Below, in pieces: positions 24,617 to 62,299 of a stretch of 64,000 nt of DNA (position 1 is its first letter; each line of letters opens with the position of its first letter). Where the stretch lies: assembly GCA_000146465.1 (NCBI GenBank), contig CP001947.1; one strand, written 5' to 3'. The notes under the pieces were generated by a model. It had not been told where the DNA came from. It ran no database searches and was given only the letters and a program-made list of their open reading frames with translations. A program made the position numbers and the translations under genes.

Positions 24617-24955
24617 CTAGAATTCATATTTGTCTTCCATTCTGCAAGTTGCTGCATATGCCAAGATACACAACTTTCTGAGGTGTTCGTAATGTACATA
24701 TTCTTTGAATACATCCCTTTTCTCTGGAGCTCTTGTTTGGTTCCTTACTTTCTGCCTTTGGTTCTGGAACCATATTTGAACTGTCCTTGGGCTTGTACCC
24801 AGGGTCTTTGACAGCTCTTCCCGAGTAGATGTAGAAGGGAATGGGTTTTCCTTAAAGGAGTCCACCAGAATTTCTACTTGCCCTGGCGACATCCTTGTTC
24901 TAGAATTCTTACTATTTTTCTTGGTGTATATCCTCATATCACCAAATAAGCTCAT
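24617..24955 (-). CDS. typical (non-TALE) homeobox transcription factor, 112 aa
   Basis: The 60-aa homeodomain is SRTRMSPGQVEILVDSF...PRTVQIWFQNQRQKVRNQ, with the helix-3 signature WFQNQR. Confidence 0.85.
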   Translation of the reverse strand: MSLFGDMRIYTKKNSKNSRTRMSPGQVEILVDSFKENPFPSTSTREELSKTLGTSPRTVQIWFQNQRQKVRNQTRAPEKRDVFKEYVHYEHLRKLCILAYAATCRMEDKYEF

Positions 24956-47678: not shown

Positions 47679-48194
47679 TCAGTTCTTCTTTGTGATGACT
47701 GCCTCCATTACTTTGAAAAAAAAGGTCTTTACCTGGCACTCGTCGAATGTTATCTCTTCGCTGAGGAAGTCTGGAAGATCCACGTTTCTAGACTCAATAA
47801 GCTTGTAGACATAAGAATTCTCCTCGGGTGTCAACACAAATCTAATGAATTTTGTAACATTGTTCGACACAATCTCGTGGGTTACCTCATAGCTTCCATC
47901 ATTCTCGACTATGTCAAACCCAACAAACTTCTTGTACAACAGTGCATCCGTCTTCAAAGACCTTAGATACTCATTCTCCTTCTTATAGCTCTCTATCAAA
48001 TCCTCTTCCTTCATCTTCATTTCAATGAGGATCTGTTTGTATCTAGATGCAGAATCAAGATCTCTCCTCTCCTCTGCACATACTGCCTTCTGGGGCCTGT
48101 TCTCTTTGGAATCAGAGGCTTCGACATCCTTTGTGGGTGTCTTTGTCCCCTTTCTTGGCGTCTTAAACGTTATTCTCTTCCTAGGTGTCTTCAT
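47679..48194 (-). CDS. hypothetical protein (171 aa) with N-terminal TPxK CDK-type sites, a coiled coil, and a C-terminal alpha/beta domain (RWD-like; possible kinetochore component)
   Basis: The N-terminus is MKTPRKRITFKTPRKGTKTPTKD. A coiled coil follows. The C-terminal segment is YEVTHEIVSNNVTKFIRFVLTPEENSYVYKLIE. Assignment is speculative. Confidence 0.35.
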   Translation of the reverse strand: MKTPRKRITFKTPRKGTKTPTKDVEASDSKENRPQKAVCAEERRDLDSASRYKQILIEMKMKEEDLIESYKKENEYLRSLKTDALLYKKFVGFDIVENDGSYEVTHEIVSNNVTKFIRFVLTPEENSYVYKLIESRNVDLPDFLSEEITFDECQVKTFFFKVMEAVITKKN

Positions 48195-48274: not shown

Positions 48275-49579
48275 TTATTTACTACTCTTCTTTCTCCTGC
48301 TTATTCTTCTCCCCTTCGAATGCTTTCCTCCGCAGTATTTCTCTTTCTTGTCTCTCCCTCCCTTCATCGATTCCACTCTCTCCTCCTTGCTTGCCTTCCG
48401 CCGGATAAACTCAAGATTCCTCCCGCAATACTTCCTGTGTCTCATCACATTGACAACAGACATGTATCCATAAGATATGCTCTTGCTCTTCGATCCCTTG
48501 AAACATTCTATATACTTTGAAATCCTTTCTTTCATCCTATCAACCACTCCGTCTTCTTTTTTTTCGTTCCGCTCTCCGTCCTCGCTGATGGAAAGGGACT
48601 GTGTCTCCGAGTCTTCTTTTCCGCCCCCTTCGTCTCTCAGTCTTGCTGCTTCTGGATCAAACTTGCAATATATCTCCCTCAGCATGTTCAATCCATACAC
48701 TACAAAGTCGTCGTCCTTGAACTCAGAGCACAGCGAGTTTCCTACAACATCGATCACTCGAAGAACATCTTGCACAGTCACCTCCTCCACAATGATCTCC
48801 ATCAAGTCCTTGATATCGCTTTTTTCGGGGTTTAGCATTCCCATTGCTACACGTGCAACTGAGGCTTTCAGCCCATATCTGCTCCGGAACAAAACATAGA
48901 TCTTCATTTTCATGATCTTCTCTTCTCTCTCCATCATATTTTCCTGAAGATTTGCAAATAGCATCTTTCCAAATCTTGACGCCTCCGCACTAAGTAACTC
49001 CATGGCCTTCTTTCCCTCCTCTTCAAAGTCTATCTGGTCCAGAAAGTACATTCTGCAGATCTTTCCCACTTTTCCATCTGCAAAGAGCCCTTCACACACT
49101 TCCTTCTCGAGAACACCACACCCCTTTCTAAACAGATATACAACCAGATAGTAGCAGAAGCTCCTTTGCTTGTCTGTTCCCTTTTTGTAGTACTCTAAAA
49201 TACATGGAACCTCCTCTTCCGAGACAAGACTCCTTATCCTCTTCAGAACCGACTTGGGGTCTGGATGGTGCTCCATGAGGTTCTTGAGGAGCTGCTCCCC
49301 GCTTACTAGTCCTCTTCTCCGAAGCCTAAAGAGACTCTCAACAACAGTTCGCTTTATTTTGTGGCACTTGATGGTCTCCACACTTGAAACAAGAGTCTCC
49401 GAAAGCCTTTTGTCGATTGTAGGGAAAGCAAGAAGAAATGAAAGAGTCTGCCGGATAGTCTTCCCCGGTTGCTTTGGGAGCCTCACAAGAGAGCTAAACA
49501 GCTCGAGCTGTCTTCCATACTCCTCCACATAGTTCTCTGGGCATTTTTCCAGCCCAACCATCACTTGGTAGATATCCAT
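48275..49579 (-). CDS. hypothetical protein (434 aa) with a highly basic C-terminal tail, possibly a nucleolar/ribosome-biogenesis factor
   Basis: A helical body with a C-terminal KR-rich tail (RRKASKEERVESMKGGRDKKEKYCGGKHSKGRRISRRKKSSK). Confidence 0.4.
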   Translation of the reverse strand: MDIYQVMVGLEKCPENYVEEYGRQLELFSSLVRLPKQPGKTIRQTLSFLLAFPTIDKRLSETLVSSVETIKCHKIKRTVVESLFRLRRRGLVSGEQLLKNLMEHHPDPKSVLKRIRSLVSEEEVPCILEYYKKGTDKQRSFCYYLVVYLFRKGCGVLEKEVCEGLFADGKVGKICRMYFLDQIDFEEEGKKAMELLSAEASRFGKMLFANLQENMMEREEKIMKMKIYVLFRSRYGLKASVARVAMGMLNPEKSDIKDLMEIIVEEVTVQDVLRVIDVVGNSLCSEFKDDDFVVYGLNMLREIYCKFDPEAARLRDEGGGKEDSETQSLSISEDGERNEKKEDGVVDRMKERISKYIECFKGSKSKSISYGYMSVVNVMRHRKYCGRNLEFIRRKASKEERVESMKGGRDKKEKYCGGKHSKGRRISRRKKSSK

Positions 49580-51024: not shown

Positions 51025-51768
51025 ATGAAGGACAGCACTGATTTTACTGAGACGGAAGCATATTCAAAGATATACAACTTCATTCTGATGGTCGACGACT
51101 CAATCAAAAACTCGGAACAGAGACGAAGCGAGCATCATATGTCCATTCTTGCAAACATCTTCGAGATTGTAGACAGCACAGAGAAGGATCCGTCTCCACA
51201 GAGGTATGCAAACATGGCTGCCAAAACCGTATTCCAAAGAATATGCGGTGCATATGACGACGAACATCTCAAAAACTCATTTGGAAACCAGATAAGATTG
51301 GACTATGGCACCGGCCATGAGCTGAACTTCCTGTGCTACCTCTACACTCACCATTGTAGAGGAGACATCAGCCTCGACTGTGTATTTACCACCCTTGTAA
51401 GATACTTCGAGGTTGTCAGGCTCTTTGTATCAAAATTCAATCTGGAGCCGGCCGGAAGTCATGGAATATGGGGTCTGGACGACTATCAATTTCTGCCCTT
51501 CCTCTTTGGGTCTTCTGAGCTCTGCAACACAAGGCTCAGATTCGACGAGCTCAACGACTCCATGTGCTACTTTGTTGCAGTCAAGAAGAAGTTGGGAGGC
51601 ACCTCTCAAATCCTCAACAGCATCATGGATAAGGACTGGCCAAAAGTCAACAGGGGAATGATTAGGATGTACGATGACCATGTGCTCAGAAGAAGCGTTG
51701 TGACACAGCACTTCATCTATGGAGAATACCTCAAGAAGGACAGAAGTCTAGCCACTAAAGAACTCTGA
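51025..51768 (+). CDS. RRD1: serine/threonine-protein phosphatase 2A activator (PTPA/Rrd)
   Basis: PTPA signatures: RLDYGTGHELNFLCYLY and GSHGIWGLDDYQFLPFLFGSSEL. The ATG is preceded by CCCC. Confidence 0.85.
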   Translation: MKDSTDFTETEAYSKIYNFILMVDDSIKNSEQRRSEHHMSILANIFEIVDSTEKDPSPQRYANMAAKTVFQRICGAYDDEHLKNSFGNQIRLDYGTGHELNFLCYLYTHHCRGDISLDCVFTTLVRYFEVVRLFVSKFNLEPAGSHGIWGLDDYQFLPFLFGSSELCNTRLRFDELNDSMCYFVAVKKKLGGTSQILNSIMDKDWPKVNRGMIRMYDDHVLRRSVVTQHFIYGEYLKKDRSLATKEL

Positions 51769-51805: not shown

Positions 51806-52786
51806 TCAGAAGTCGACATCTATCCTGAACGAATCATTTCCATTATCTATCCCCACAAATGCCTTCTGGTACTGTGACTCTCTCTTGTCGAAGAAGTTTG
51901 TCTTTCCAACCAAAGAGATGTTCTCCATAAAATCAAACGGGTTGGGAGTATGGTATATCTTCTCCTCCTCAAGATTCTCTAGGAGAGTATCGGCTACAAA
52001 CTCTATATATTTGCACATCAACTGGCAGTTCATCCCTATAAGATCCACTGGAAGACTTTCACTCAGAAACCTCTTTTCAACTTCGACTGCATCCATCACC
52101 ACCTCCTTTACTCGCTTGCACTTCTGTTTCAGGTAACGTCTATGCAAAAGGCATGCAAACTCACAGTGCAGACCCTCGTCCCTGCTTATCAGCTCGTTCG
52201 AAAACGTTAGTCCAGGCATCAGCCCTCTCTTCTTCAGCCAGAATATAGATGCAAATGACCCAGAAAAGAATATACCCTCCACACAGGCAAACGCCACAAG
52301 CCTTGTTGCAAAGTCAGAATTCTTATCCTCAATCCATTTTATTGCCCAATCGGCCTTGTCTTTCACAGAGGGGATAGTTTTGACTGCATTAAAAAGGAAC
52401 TTCTTCTGTTCTCCGTCCCTTACATACGTGTCAATCAGCAGGCTGTACATCTCACTGTGGATGTTCTCAATTGCAATCTGGAACCCATAGAATAGCTTTG
52501 CTTCAAGCATCTTGACCTCGCTGGAGAACCGCTCCACCAGATTCAGATTGACAATTCCATCAGACGCCGCAAAGAATGCAAGAACATTGGAGATAAAGTG
52601 CTTCTCCTTTGGATTTAACTTCTTCCAATCTTCAATGTCTTTGTCGAGGAGAACCTCTTCCACAGTCCAGAACGAGCTTTCAGCCTTCTTGTACATCCTC
52701 CATACATCTTCGTGTTGTATGGGAAAGAGTACAAACCTCTCTTCTTTAGGATCCAATAGTGGCTCAATTTTTTCTTCGCAACTCAT
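51806..52786 (-). CDS. RNR2: ribonucleoside-diphosphate reductase small subunit (R2)
   Basis: Di-iron ligand helices ([10 protein letters not shown]...[23 protein letters not shown]) and a tyrosyl radical site region. The C-terminal tail is present. Confidence 0.9.
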
Positions 52787-52924
52787 AAGCTATTTGACAG
52801 AATCTGCTTATATACTTTTTTTTGGAGGGAATATCTCCCTCAAAATAATAATCATCTAAATTCAATTTTACAATCCTTGCTCGATCTAATTTCGTCGATC
52901 CCCTCTTGGCATTTGGCTTCACCC

Positions 52925-52963
52925 ACCTAAGCCATGGCGGGAGAGCGGCCCCAGAACCTAAGC
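52925..52963. repeat. 8-bp direct repeat ACCTAAGC flanking a 23-bp GC-rich spacer (CATGGCGGGAGAGCGGCCCCAGA) inside an otherwise AT-rich intergenic region
   Basis: Copies are read at 52925-52932 and 52956-52963. The GC-rich spacer contrasts sharply with the ~25-30 percent GC surroundings. Confidence 0.3.
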
Positions 52964-53064
52964 TAGGAATGACTATTTATTGTAAATAATGTTCCCTATA
53001 AAAGGAACACTGGTATTATTTATATTTACTGCACCCTATATATTATAACTATTATTGAATGTTT

Positions 53065-53717
53065 TTACTCAAGATCAATAAATTCCTTTCTCATGAATGG
53101 TAATATACGTTTTCTCGCATTTGCAAACCAATTATCTATTTGAGACAATTTTAGTCCTGTTTCTTTAGAAAGTATTTTTTTTCTATTTTAGTTGGATAAG
53201 GATTAGAAAGATGCTCCTTTAGCCATCTTCTTAGCATTTTGGACACTTCTCTTGGAAAATTAGCTCTCCTAGAATGAGGACTACTTCCGAGCCAACCATT
53301 AGTTGATGAATTATTTCTTATATAACTCTCATACCTGTATAAATCCCTCTCGTTCATTACATTCATCATATCTATGATGTTGTCCATTTTTCTTTGGAGT
53401 TTGGTGCATTCTGAATCAAATATAGAAACAAGATTTTTTTCAAATAGTAATGCATACTTAAATTTCTCAGCAATTAGAAACAAAGCTAGCTTGTGTGATA
53501 AGTTATTCGGAAAAAAATGTGTATTGGAGCATGTTTCGTAATTTTTCCGAATTTTTAATAGGACTTCCTTCAAATGATGTTCATTTATCATTCCTTGAAA
53601 ATATTGTTCTTTTGCGATTAATATTTGGCCAATATGCTCCACCATATCTAGAAAACTATCGGCATTTAAAACAAAAATTGATAAACTCGTAATTAACGTT
53701 ATAAAAATAATATCCAT
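53065..53717 (-). CDS. TALE-class homeobox gene whose ORF is interrupted by a -1 frameshift in an A8 tract (the ORF-track part is 53151..53717; the homeodomain C-terminal part continues in another frame to the stop at 53065)
   Basis: Frame 1 ends ...RRANFPREVSKMLRRWLKEHLSNPYPTKIEKKYFLKKQD-stop. A second frame reads (R)KKILSKETGLKLSQIDNWFANARKRILPFMRKEFIDLE-stop. Adding one A to the A8 run (minus strand; T8 on plus at 53175-53182) gives a continuous canonical TALE homeodomain: NF...WL..H..NPYP...EK..L...TGL...Q..NWF.N.R.R. Confidence 0.7.
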
Positions 53718-53797
53718 ATCACTTCAGAAGACTATTATAACTTGTCAAACTCATCAAGACAAGATAAAGTATAAAATAAAAAGATATTTTACAAAAT

Positions 53798-55276
53798 ATG
53801 AATTTAGGATGGCTACTGAAGATTCCAATGCGAAAACATTCAAACAGGAAAATAATTGTATATGAAAATAGCATGGCTTCGTTTTACTCTAGGACGTTTG
53901 AAATAATTGAAGAGCATATTTCTACCATATCCAATAATGAACATCATAGAGATGGATTAGTAGAGTATATAGAAATGTTATCATATTTTCAAATCTCTAA
54001 TGAAGATCATGAGAAAAAAGAAGAAATTAATAGACAAAGGCAAAGCTTACTTAAGAAATTTAGATCCCTAACCTTAATTAGTATTTCAAAAGTAGAAAAA
54101 GACAATAGGAAAATATTGAAATCTTATCATGGAGTATTACATCTTTTAGATTTGATTGGTTTTGGTGTAAATCCTTATGAAATGGTTTTAAAAAAATGGT
54201 TAAACACCAATTGTATGATAATTAGTGATGTAGAAAGACATGCCATAAGAGGAAATTTCGAAAAAGTGATCGAAGCATATCCCTATTTAAACGAGGCTAT
54301 TAATAATTATTTAAACTTAAGGAAGACGTCAGGAAATGAATACAGGAAATTATTTGCGTCTTGGAAGATCAAATATTTTAAAATTATTCCCAATAATTTA
54401 AAGGAAATTCTTTTTCATAATATTAACGGGGATGGTATTGACTGGATTGATCATATTTGCTATAAATCGTTTTGTATGAACACACAAAGGAATGGGATCG
54501 ATCTTATAAATAGGGAAGATGAAATCGGAATGATATTAACACATAATTATGATGCACTAATAGAACGTTCTAAAGGATGGATTAGACTAGTATTATTGTT
54601 CGTTTGCCCTCATACAAAATTTGATTTATTTCCAAGAGCATTTGAATCTATCGGGAAATTCCTATATTTATCAGATTATCGCTTATCTTTGAGATTTTTT
54701 TCGTACACAGAGAAACTAATCTTATACTTTAATCACTTTTCCTGTAAGTTTTCTAAAAGTCTTTCGGATTTAGAATTCTTGGTTGAGTATTCCAAAAAAA
54801 ATAATATTAATGGAAATTCTTTGTTAAAAGAGTACTGCCAAAATCTTCTTTCTAATCAAGAGTATTATAATCTTTTTTATGTTATATCTAAATATGAGCT
54901 CTGCGATATAAACATAAATTCCGAGTTTATAGAATTCTGTATTAGAAATACAACAATACTAACTGAAAACTTCACTAAAACATCGTATGGAATTTTTATT
55001 GGAAACTTTAGGAGATTTCTTAGTGGAATAAAAGTTGGTGAAGGTGAAATTATAGCATTGATAAATTCAGATTATTTTTCAGCTCTAGATAGTAGAACAT
55101 TTGAAATAATACTAGAGAACAGATGCATTACTGTGAACATGCTTTATAAGCTTTTAGAAGGAATGTTAAATGTGGAAAGAAAAGGGAAGTCTAATCCCAT
55201 ATTGAAAAGCAAAAAAGCTTTAGTTCTCAATAAGTTAGCGGAATCTACAGGTCTCGGGAAGGACATATCAATTTAA
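53798..55276 (+). CDS. hypothetical protein (492 aa), AT-rich orphan ORF divergent from the TALE homeobox gene
   Basis: The ATG was verified. The composition is Asn/Ile/Lys/Phe/Tyr-rich, reflecting local GC of roughly 28 percent. No recognisable domain; a search for a homeodomain helix-3 was negative. Confidence 0.45.
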   Translation: MNLGWLLKIPMRKHSNRKIIVYENSMASFYSRTFEIIEEHISTISNNEHHRDGLVEYIEMLSYFQISNEDHEKKEEINRQRQSLLKKFRSLTLISISKVEKDNRKILKSYHGVLHLLDLIGFGVNPYEMVLKKWLNTNCMIISDVERHAIRGNFEKVIEAYPYLNEAINNYLNLRKTSGNEYRKLFASWKIKYFKIIPNNLKEILFHNINGDGIDWIDHICYKSFCMNTQRNGIDLINREDEIGMILTHNYDALIERSKGWIRLVLLFVCPHTKFDLFPRAFESIGKFLYLSDYRLSLRFFSYTEKLILYFNHFSCKFSKSLSDLEFLVEYSKKNNINGNSLLKEYCQNLLSNQEYYNLFYVISKYELCDININSEFIEFCIRNTTILTENFTKTSYGIFIGNFRRFLSGIKVGEGEIIALINSDYFSALDSRTFEIILENRCITVNMLYKLLEGMLNVERKGKSNPILKSKKALVLNKLAESTGLGKDISI

Positions 55277-55614
55277 ACTATTAAACTGGTAGTATCAATT
55301 TAAATTACAAATACTTTGGAAATATCTCCTTCTGTTTATTAACTTTTCAAGGGATTGCCGTTTTTTAAAACAAACATATAAGAGTGATGATACATAACTT
55401 CTTTTTGTATTCTTAAGTAAATTCATGTAAAATTTTAGAATAAAATGTCCGAAGATATTTGAGTTCCTATAGCAATAGCAGAAACACACCCTATCTCAAT
55501 TCATTATACTTCCTGGGAATCCATACTTTAAAGATTTAAAGTAAAACTAAAAAGGAAGGGGGTGTTTATTTCAATAGATTAAAATCGAAATATTGTATTT
55601 TTAAACTAAGAGAT

Positions 55615-59962: not shown

Positions 59963-62299
59963 ATGGGGATCAAGGATACGTTTGGAATGGAAGGGATAAG
60001 AAGACTCTTTGAAAGAGGTTCGTTTGTGGAAAATCCCCTGGGCAAGTCATTGATTGTGAAGCATCTTTCGTCTCTGAATTCCAAGAGGCAGATCAAAGGG
60101 GCAAGGAGTCTGGTGAGCAGGATGCAGCGTGGAGAAGATCTCTTTGAGCTCTGTAATGATGTCATCAAGGCGATGGACACAAGAGATCCCGAGCTCAAGA
60201 GAATGCTCAACCTGTATCTGGTGAAGTATGTGCAAGGATGGCCTGCAAAGCAACTGATATGTATCAACACCGTACTGAAGGATCTTGGAGACGTAAATAG
60301 CGAAATGCGACATTGTGCAATTCAAGATAGTGGGCTGCTAGGAGACGGAGCAGTGATCAAAAACTATGTTAATCCTCTCAAGGAGCATGGGGTTAGTGCG
60401 CTGCCTGAGACAAGAAGGAAGGTAGCAGACTCATTGAGGAACTATTTCAGGAAAGATCCCCGTTTGTTCCATGACGAAGACCTTTGCGATCTACTGAGAG
60501 ACTTGGTGTTTGACGAGGATGCAGGTGTGTGTGCATCTGCACTAAATAGCGTTCAAGCCATAGAGAAGGAGACAAGAGTCCTTTCTACCAAAGACATCTA
60601 TATCCTCTTTGGAAAGGCCATTAAGACAGGAAACAGGGAAATCCTTGGAAGTCTTCTGGAAGTGATGAATAACAGAGCAGAGGACTTCCTTGATGCTGCT
60701 CCATTGGTTCCATTGTTGAGATCGTGTAGCCTTCGGATATTCCGTCAGGCATCTGATCTGGCCATTTCTATCGATCCCTCTTACAGGCAAATTGTGTTTG
60801 ATCACCTCAAAGGGTTTCTTAATTCAAAGGACGAGGAGTTGTATCTTGTACTTGACTATGCCGAGTCTCTTCTTGATCATGTGAAGTACGACAATTCATG
60901 CTTTGCCATCTACCACAGCGACAGGAAATACAATAAGATAAAGAAGCTTAAGATTCTATTCAAAAGGCTGGATAGCATCTCTGTGTCGGAAATAAAGAAC
61001 CAATGCAGAGATGAAGAACTTCTTGGAGTGATTTTGAAGGAGTCTCTTATTGCAGACTATCTTATAGAGGAGCCGTTCAAATACATACGCAAGGCAGATG
61101 AAATAATAAGAGTTCTGTACAGTGAAGATGCTATTTCAGAAAAATGGTCGGGACTGATTGAAAAATTCTTGATGAGTGCGAGGGAAGTGCAGGAAAGGCA
61201 GAAGTATATCTATCTCTGTGGGAGATATGTCCACGAGATTCCTTCAGAAGTTATAAGAATCCAAAGTCTGTACATTCCTTCTCTAGTCAACGAGACGGCC
61301 AGGTTTTATCTTAGCCTCCATAGAAGAGGAGTGGTAAATCTGGAAGAGACCCTAGGGCACCTCCGTCTGGTACAGAAGAGCCCAAAGGACAGAATCCGAG
61401 CAGTGATCAATGAACTGAAGACCCGGGGAATAGGAGTGTTTTCAGCATTTTGTGACATCAAAAAGCGGGATCTGAACAGCACTAAAGCCTGTAGATCTGT
61501 TGGGATAAAGTATGAGGAAAAGACCACTTCGATACTCGATGGCAAGCCATACTATGGACTAAGTGAAGATGGATTTCTAAGGGAAAATTCTGGAGAAGCA
61601 TTGGAGAAGTTCCGCGAAGAGGAGAAATCTCTACGTGAAGAATGCTCTTCTCTTGAAAGAGGAGAGACACAAACAACCGAGCTCTCTTCTGCAGGAGAGA
61701 GTAGTCCATTTCCAGGAAATGGCTCACAATGTCCAGCTCTGTTCTTGGGCAAGGAAGACGAGGAAAATGTTTGGCTGAGGTTTGCTGAATCTCATCGTCC
61801 TGTTGAAGGTAAGAGGGCCAAAGAGAAGGAATCCACCAGGCTGATAGACACCCTTGGGCTAAAAGGGATTCTTGCCATTGCTGGTGAAGAGGTTATACTT
61901 CAAGTGGATGTGCTAGAAAGTCCATTGGTTATTTATTACAGGTGTAAGGGGCGACTCAACAGTATCAAAATAGACGGCGAAGGGACTTTTTCTCTTTTCA
62001 CAATAGGTCTTCCAGTAATCAACTCGGAGTTCAGCCTAACAATAGGAAAGTCCAACTACGAAATCTACCTGGGAATCAGAAGCTTGATGAATCCATTTGA
62101 GTGCTCGAAGGATGAGTTTGAAAGGAAATTCCATGAGCTCAGAGACCACATACTCCTAGGGGAAATCGACACTGGGAAGGCATATGCCGTCGACAACCAT
62201 CGGTTCTCATTTTCTGTCCTTGGCTCAAAATTCTACGGAAAGCATCTCAATGGACAGGCAATCCTCAAAGGCCCGAGGAAGCTGTTGGGACTCTTTTAA
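59963..62299 (+). CDS. adaptin N-terminal domain protein (AP-complex beta-type large subunit or coatomer beta-like)
   Basis: The N-terminal HEAT/ARM trunk aligns with beta-adaptins (PELKRMLNLYLVKYVQGWP...LKDLGDVNSEMRHCAIQ...RKDPRLFHDEDLCDLLRDLVFDEDAGVCASALNSV). A C-terminal beta-sandwich-like appendage is present. The start is the first ATG after a TTG at 59939. Confidence 0.55.
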   Translation: MGIKDTFGMEGIRRLFERGSFVENPLGKSLIVKHLSSLNSKRQIKGARSLVSRMQRGEDLFELCNDVIKAMDTRDPELKRMLNLYLVKYVQGWPAKQLICINTVLKDLGDVNSEMRHCAIQDSGLLGDGAVIKNYVNPLKEHGVSALPETRRKVADSLRNYFRKDPRLFHDEDLCDLLRDLVFDEDAGVCASALNSVQAIEKETRVLSTKDIYILFGKAIKTGNREILGSLLEVMNNRAEDFLDAAPLVPLLRSCSLRIFRQASDLAISIDPSYRQIVFDHLKGFLNSKDEELYLVLDYAESLLDHVKYDNSCFAIYHSDRKYNKIKKLKILFKRLDSISVSEIKNQCRDEELLGVILKESLIADYLIEEPFKYIRKADEIIRVLYSEDAISEKWSGLIEKFLMSAREVQERQKYIYLCGRYVHEIPSEVIRIQSLYIPSLVNETARFYLSLHRRGVVNLEETLGHLRLVQKSPKDRIRAVINELKTRGIGVFSAFCDIKKRDLNSTKACRSVGIKYEEKTTSILDGKPYYGLSEDGFLRENSGEALEKFREEEKSLREECSSLERGETQTTELSSAGESSPFPGNGSQCPALFLGKEDEENVWLRFAESHRPVEGKRAKEKESTRLIDTLGLKGILAIAGEEVILQVDVLESPLVIYYRCKGRLNSIKIDGEGTFSLFTIGLPVINSEFSLTIGKSNYEIYLGIRSLMNPFECSKDEFERKFHELRDHILLGEIDTGKAYAVDNHRFSFSVLGSKFYGKHLNGQAILKGPRKLLGLF

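Follow-up and report, generated by a model that had tools for sequence, protein, structure and literature searches.

A probable one-nucleotide deletion in a poly(A) tract disrupts the homeobox gene HD-12 in most of the sequenced isolates of Encephalitozoon intestinalis

An A8 tract interrupts a TALE homeobox gene

Encephalitozoon intestinalis is a microsporidian parasite of humans whose nuclear genome is among the smallest known. In a 64-kb stretch of chromosome VI from the 2010 assembly of strain ATCC 50506 (henceforth the window), a TALE homeobox gene is split between two reading frames at a run of eight adenines, and in near-identical genotypes of the same species the run has nine adenines and the gene is intact. 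We consider it likely that the A8 state is a genuine and very recent one-nucleotide deletion (A9 to A8) that created a null or crippled allele of this gene, and that this allele segregates among E. intestinalis isolates.

The gene in question, Eint_060650, is annotated as an "uncharacterized protein" of 164 aa. Its truncated coding sequence lies on the minus strand (53151..53645; 164 aa plus stop) and gives a product identical to the annotated one. This product consists of an N-terminal helical region and, from the homeodomain, helix 1, the TALE loop (NPYP) and the first half of helix 2; seven out-of-frame codons (YFLKKQD) and a stop then follow. At the tract the minus strand reads CCT TAT CCA ACT AAA ATA GAA AAA AAA TAC TTT CTA AAG AAA CAG GAC TAA. 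The first frame thus runs from ...RRANFPREVSKMLRRWLKEHLSNPYPTKIEKK into YFLKKQD and the stop codon, its last in-frame residues before the shift being ...SNPYPTKIEKK. The A8 homopolymer, which is the proposed site of the deletion (53175..53182, minus strand; T8 on the plus strand), forms the heptamer A_AAA_AAA in the zero frame. The remainder of the gene (53065..53174, minus strand) is out of frame; translation of the minus strand in this second frame gives ILSKETGLKLSQIDNWFANARKRILPFMRKEFIDLE*, which comprises the second half of helix 2, recognition helix 3 (WFANARKR) and a conserved C-terminal tail (RILPFMRKEFIDLE), and which ends at the original stop codon of the intact gene (TAA, 53067-53065). 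With A9 in the tract, the gene would extend over 53065..53645 on the minus strand and specify 193 aa. Because the orthologues begin at a Met that aligns with 53645, we preferred this start to the upstream in-frame ATG at 53717, which would add 24 residues.

These findings bear out the original prediction, made from the DNA letters, of a TALE homeobox ORF broken at this A8 tract with a stop seven codons further on. The prediction had assigned helices 1 and 2 to the first frame; this frame encodes helix 1 and the first half of helix 2, and the second frame encodes the other half. The further proposal that one extra A would join the two frames seamlessly also held. In the frame of the window, the match to the Pfam profile Homeobox_KN (PF05920) covers 22 of 40 profile positions (E 7.9e-6), and in the A9 reading it covers 40 of 40 (E 2e-19). 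The A9-repaired protein is residue-for-residue identical to KAL7347515.1, which is annotated in another E. intestinalis isolate, and to one protein assembled in Logan. Since the repaired protein is identical to one annotated in another isolate, the joining of the frames is not a matter of chance.

Once repaired, the homeodomain can be aligned to the solved structures of TGIF2LX and TGIF1 (2dmn, 6fqp) with no gap, through ...HLSNPYPTKIEKK..., and it strongly matches PKNOX1 and MEIS structures as well, with E values across structures of 3.5e-16 to about 3e-14. The three-residue loop extension and the helix-3 motif WFxNAR are common to the repaired protein and the TGIF/MEIS/PKNOX group of TALE homeodomains (2dmn, 6fqp, 1x2n, 4xrm), and in the A9 reading the loop extension is accompanied by a match to the whole profile. 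In the window, by contrast, WFxNxR is not in the same frame as helices 1 and 2: WFANARKR lies in another frame, after the stop, and the window therefore holds a disrupted TALE allele rather than a functional member of the class. Eint_060650 also differs from the TGIF/MEIS/PKNOX class outside the homeodomain, as a Pfam scan detected no MEIS, PBC or KNOX domain upstream and the N-terminal region has no detectable relative beyond close microsporidian orthologues. This region, of some 125 residues, is conserved among those orthologues. A HMMER scan of 1.84 billion representatives returned the close orthologues, one dubious repeat protein and nothing else. AlphaFold2, applied to the intact protein, places the three helices of the homeodomain at residues 132-144, 153-163 and 167-188, with pLDDT of about 80-87; the model as a whole is of low confidence (mean pLDDT 59), with values of 35-68 in the N-terminal region. 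K157 is the last residue before the frame breaks, which puts the break midway along helix 2 of this model.

Orthologues and ancestral state

The best non-self match of the protein is E. cuniculi HD-12 (ECU06_0740, UniProt Q8SRR1), where 56% of residues are identical across 89% of the query; the other relatives are an E. hellem homeodomain protein (52% identity) and two proteins from Logan assemblies. Every orthologue found is intact, at 191-193 aa. The gene neighbourhood is also kept, with an M16 peptidase, HD-12, the small subunit of ribonucleotide reductase (RNR) and PTPA following one another in E. intestinalis, E. cuniculi and E. hellem; in the window the homeobox gene is flanked by the RNR small-subunit gene (51806-52786, minus strand) and the PTPA gene (51025-51768, plus strand). 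By both best match and neighbourhood, Eint_060650 is the syntenic orthologue of E. cuniculi HD-12. The E. cuniculi gene resembles the E. intestinalis gene in its sequence (56% identity across all 193 aa), its length, its neighbours, the codon position of the A9 tract and its extreme AT-richness. It differs in being intact, the window copy being one A short, so that its homeodomain stops halfway along helix 2, and in lacking a 492-aa orphan gene that lies between the HD-12 gene and the peptidase in E. intestinalis.

The original prediction had suggested that orthologous tracts in sister species be compared, and the outcome supports the ancestry of the intact form. The E. cuniculi tract reads GAA AAA AAA ATG, an in-frame A9; that of E. 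hellem reads GAA AAA AAA GTA, is in frame and belongs to an intact gene; and that of a further relative reads GAA AAG AAG ATG, so that the run is broken by synonymous G's and the gene is again intact. The homeodomain continues beyond the tract in each of them. Because E. cuniculi, E. hellem and the further relative are all in frame, the ancestral state was in frame and A8 represents a deletion. Helix 3 and the C-terminal tail, through the stop codon, are conserved in five intact orthologues, and the tail (RILPFM+KEFIDxx) is conserved up to the stop codon in four species.

Distribution of A8 and A9 among isolates

The truncated product of 164 aa is present in four assemblies that represent three isolates (ADM11673.2, UTX45410.1, KAL7345567.1 and KAL7349475.1), the A8 state being taken, in the assemblies other than the window, from the annotated proteins rather than from their DNA. 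ADM11673.2 belongs to the 2010 assembly of ATCC 50506, and UTX45410.1 is assigned to the telomere-to-telomere (T2T) assembly of the same strain, which was built from Nanopore (ONT) reads and corrected iteratively with Illumina reads using Pilon. The KAL proteins come from isolates ATCC 50507, 50603 and 50651, each assembled de novo with SPAdes from 300-360x Illumina coverage. KAL7345567.1 and KAL7349475.1 belong to two of these three isolates; the third, GCA_051312795.1, encodes the intact 193-aa protein (KAL7347515.1), and its A9 was read directly in the DNA. A Logan contig from ERR13302946 likewise has A9 and an intact protein, and because it carries its own allele of AP-3 beta (I451) we regard it as an independent genotype. 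Three ATCC isolates, ATCC 50506 among them, thus have A8, and A9 occurs in one ATCC isolate and one independent sample.

The two states occur on nearly identical backgrounds. A comparison of the window with GCA_051312795.1 shows nothing but the indel in 10,981 bp, and when extended to 20,582 bp it adds two SNPs, at least one of which is private to the 2010 assembly. Between the window and ERR13302946 the indel is the sole difference in 5,528 bp. Overall, the isolates differ at about one site in 10,000, and ten large window proteins that we compared across assemblies showed too few differences for a tree of the isolates.

One of the three explanations put forward in the original prediction was an error of sequencing or assembly at the homopolymer, in which case the true genome of the window isolate would carry A9 and an intact gene. 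Homopolymers are classic sites of error, and the 2010 and T2T assemblies of this strain disagree at one or more sites where the 2010 sequence stands alone (AP-3 beta has A246 in the former and S246 in the latter). However, the same truncated protein is encoded in the Pilon-polished T2T assembly and in two isolates assembled de novo from Illumina reads at ~300x, and the same Illumina/SPAdes pipeline called A9 in the sister isolate, which indicates that it can tell A8 from A9. With the A8 product in four assemblies of three isolates, produced on different platforms, and with A9 returned elsewhere by the same pipeline, the same error in all four is very unlikely, and we hold an artefact to be extremely improbable.

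A related concern is that the isolates scored as A8 keep an intact A9 copy, either because their diploid nuclei are heterozygous or because the culture contains a minor A9 genotype, and that their assemblies display the majority allele. A diploid state has been estimated for E. intestinalis ATCC 50506 (PMC12978467), so that an A9 copy, heterozygous or in the minority, could lie behind a consensus of A8, and the presence of both states among nearly identical genomes means that they may coexist in populations. Against a hidden copy, four consensus assemblies have A8 and two have A9, with no ambiguity recorded, and we judge it unlikely, if conceivable.

The distribution thus favours a second explanation in the original prediction, that of a recent inactivating mutation: A8 is present in four assemblies from three isolates, A9 is present in two near-identical genotypes, and the orthologues are in frame. 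The prediction had also argued that the conservation of the homeodomain downstream of the break speaks against long-standing pseudogenisation. This argument was right, and the reason for the conservation is the recency of the event; since the isolates differ at only about one site in 10,000, no decay has set in yet.

Composition of the tract and its mutability

The homeobox gene stands apart from its surroundings in composition. Its GC content is 30% (GC3 28%) versus 39.6-46.7% GC in 45 other ORFs of the window, and it uses the Lys codons AAA and AAG in a ratio of 12:5, versus 534:941 in the other ORFs. The tract exists because this AT-rich gene spells Glu-Lys-Lys-Ile as GAA AAA AAA ATA. Nowhere in the 64-kb window is there a homopolymer longer than 8 nt, and further coding A8 tracts lie at 47716-47723, 48557-48564 and 54794-54801; A9 would therefore be the longest run of the region and the likeliest site of replication slippage. 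The deletion may accordingly have arisen by slippage during replication of the coding A9, with the loss of one A. More generally, the fragile poly(A) tracts in the AT-rich genes of these genomes are hot spots of mutation.

The AT-richness is shared by the HD-12 genes of the comparison loci (L004 4001-4582; L005 4001-4579; L006 4001-4576). The GC content of the gene against that of its locus is 30% versus 47% in E. cuniculi, 28% versus 44% in E. hellem and 29% versus 55% in the further relative. In the window, the HD-12 gene and the neighbouring orphan ORF are the only 2 of 47 ORFs with less than 39.6% GC, and the two are spanned by a sharply bounded AT-rich island of 2.8 kb (52800-55600) that has 26-33% GC, versus 41-48% in its flanks.

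A tract of this kind might also act as a contingency locus, that is, as a reversible ON/OFF switch at which frequent toggling between A9 and A8 varies a developmental regulator in clonal populations. The length of the tract does vary among near-identical isolates (A8 in three isolates, A9 in two genotypes) and is among the very few differences between them. A further point in its favour is that Msh3, which recognises small insertion/deletion loops as a subunit of MutS-beta, is missing from E. cuniculi (PMC1851970). The authors of that study nevertheless consider mismatch repair to be functional without Msh3. Moreover, the homopolymer is not conserved across species, and the data are explained just as well if one deletion was passed on to related isolates. 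Frequent toggling is in our view highly improbable, and we return to the single recent deletion as the preferred account.

Recoding at the tract

The third explanation in the original prediction was expression through transcriptional slippage or programmed frameshifting on the A run. Under this reading, a -1 ribosomal frameshift on A_AAA_AAA, or an extra A added by RNA polymerase II, would yield the full-length protein at a meaningful level. The local sequence lends itself to the idea: the zero-frame heptamer fits the X_XXY_YYZ pattern of a slippery site, with GA[A AAA AAA] TAC in register, a -1 shift gives exactly the wild-type ...IEKKILSK..., and low-level compensatory frameshifting or slippage on A/T runs has been documented elsewhere (in the available text of PMC5009743). 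Beyond the heptamer, two other features of a programmed -1 frameshift site were not found. The 100 nt downstream have a minimum free energy of -14.8 kcal/mol (z = -1.12), and 23 of 200 shuffled sequences fold as well, in a calculation without pseudoknots, so that there is no sign of a stimulatory structure. The two-frame arrangement is absent from all orthologues and from two E. intestinalis genotypes, all of which keep to one frame throughout; the tract is also not maintained as a homopolymer, being interrupted in one relative (AAG AAG). Finally, the bacterial transcription slippage described in the available text of PMC5009743 takes place on runs of 9 A or T, and the run here has 8. Programmed slippage or frameshifting thus finds no positive support, and rescue of the protein at a meaningful level appears very unlikely, although slippage of a low-level, unprogrammed kind probably occurs at the tract.

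Known cases of rescue offer a useful comparison. According to PMC5009743, poly(A) frameshifts are rescued by polymerase slippage in Buchnera and Blochmannia, and a "savior indel" and compensatory frameshifting operate at a G-run in the thymidine kinase gene of HSV. These cases likewise involve a single-base indel in a coding homopolymer, at which slippage by one base would restore the product, and Buchnera and Blochmannia share with E. intestinalis the AT-rich, reduced genome of an intracellular organism. The present case differs in that the run is 8 nt long and that the frameshift is neither fixed in the species nor conserved across species.

Taken broadly, a functional switch at the tract, whether through reversible ON/OFF slippage or through partial activity of the A8 allele by -1 ribosomal or transcriptional slippage on A_AAA_AAA, strikes us as decidedly unlikely. 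Were it to exist, it would provide a tunable low dose of a transcription factor, possibly together with a homeodomain-less N-terminal fragment that acts as a dominant negative, and bacterial contingency loci would have a counterpart in a eukaryote.

Consequences of the truncated allele

On the preferred reading of a recent deletion, the frame would be shifted in the middle of helix 2 of the homeodomain, and the 164-aa product would keep the N-terminal helical region and helix 1 and lose the DNA-recognition helix and the C-terminal tail. Because the recognition helix and the conserved tail are lost, the truncated product would not be expected to bind DNA, as judged from general knowledge of homeodomains, and the allele would be null or crippled. 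It would follow that the gene is dispensable in cultured or human-infecting isolates. As the truncated protein keeps the conserved N-terminal domain, it might have a function that is independent of DNA binding. Some residual function of the allele is also possible because a spontaneous -1 slippage or an added A would give the wild-type protein. A search of the literature turned up no expression or protein data for this gene, and the text of a single-cell RNA-seq paper makes no mention of it. The paper describing the T2T assembly contains no published remark on frameshifts or homopolymers.

The type of event is ordinary and reveals no new mechanism, but it has practical consequences. The reference entry of 164 aa for Eint_060650 should be re-annotated as a frameshifted allele, as the present annotation hides the frameshift. 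In addition, the A8 and A9 isolates would constitute a natural pair of knockout and wild type for a conserved microsporidian transcription factor, in near-identical genomes. To our knowledge there are essentially no genetic tools for microsporidia, and such a near-isogenic pair is of practical use for that reason; comparison of an A9 isolate with ATCC 50506 could reveal the targets of HD-12.

Relation to mating-type loci

In its second explanation, the original prediction had described the gene as a "mating-type-like regulator". This description is not supported, as the gene has no adjacent homeobox partner, is not a listed MAT candidate and encodes a TGIF/MEIS-like homeodomain. The homeodomain gives E values of about 1e-16 against TGIF/MEIS and only a weak value of about 3e-4 against MATalpha2. 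What the gene has in common with the fungal HD mating-type loci (HD1/HD2; MATalpha2/a1) is a TALE homeodomain protein in a fungus-related lineage; those loci differ in that they contain a divergent homeodomain pair, and there is none at HD-12. At such a locus a TALE gene and a typical homeobox gene stand side by side in divergent orientation; the neighbours here are the RNR small subunit and the orphan ORF. Nor are the alleles of the isolates idiomorphs, because they are identical except for a single base. In E. cuniculi, three homeodomain clusters were proposed as MAT candidates (Burglin 2003): ECU03_0600/0610, ECU04_0970/1030 and ECU10_1470/1480. These were later found to be non-idiomorphic, and HD-12 (ECU06_0740) is not among the candidate clusters named in PMC2866331, from which this account is taken.

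The window contains one further homeobox gene, of the typical, non-TALE kind (...RTVQIWFQNQRQKVRNQ...; 24617-24955, minus strand; 112 aa), with a normal GC content of 41%. It is the only other ORF in the 64 kb that encodes WFxNxR. As it lies about 28 kb from the HD-12 gene, the two do not form a pair. A homeobox-like ORF, ECU06_0735, has been reported from transcriptomics of E. cuniculi; we looked for it next to HD-12 and did not find it there.

Neighbouring elements

The orphan ORF, Eint_060660 (53798-55276, plus strand; 492 aa, 29% GC), carries the UniRef label Nup85. Pfam yields no match, and among 5.8 billion proteins a search recovered the ORF itself and no homologue. In E. cuniculi, E. 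hellem and the further relative, the syntenic spacer between the M16 peptidase and HD-12 genes lacks the insertion of ~1.45 kb that houses this ORF. The five E. intestinalis assemblies do not differ in the ORF.

A candidate non-coding element of ~150 nt lies just downstream of the stop codon of the M16 peptidase (55425-55572, minus strand), with counterparts in the comparison loci (L004 3505-3654; L005 3498-3644; L006 3658-3806). It is about 80% identical across four species, versus 47-56% for the neighbouring protein. Its predicted fold has a CCC motif at the start, two hairpins with internal loops, an ACA and then a T-rich stretch, with compensatory changes in 4 of 27 predicted pairs. This predicted layout resembles that of an H/ACA snoRNA. 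The element has no match in Rfam, and no RNA genes were detected near the homeobox gene in 52.0-56.0 kb by ARAGORN or in 52.5-56.0 kb by Rfam. Five H/ACA snoRNAs have been reported for Encephalitozoon (Belkorchia et al. 2017; PMC5499648), and the element may be one of these.

Elsewhere in the window, a second candidate frameshift at 1799-2444 was rejected, as the ORF at 2028-2444 reads as a complete gene and the ORF overlapping it looks spurious. In the AP-3 beta gene (59963-62299, plus strand), residue 246 (window position 60698) is Ala in the 2010 assembly only (ADM11677.1), and Ser in the T2T assembly of the same strain, in the three other isolates and in ERR13302946; in all likelihood A246 reflects a base error or a culture variant that is peculiar to the 2010 assembly. 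The second of the differences between the window and GCA_051312795.1 is in an intergenic spacer, at about 62354. Upstream of the start of the RNR small-subunit gene at 52786 there is a promoter-proximal motif, GAGGGAGAT-ATTCCCTCC-AAAAAAAA-GTATATAAG (52800-52850, minus strand), which consists of an inverted repeat, an A8 run and a TATA-like box and is conserved in E. intestinalis, E. cuniculi and E. hellem. The A8 run of this motif (52816-52823) is invariant between the compared assemblies.
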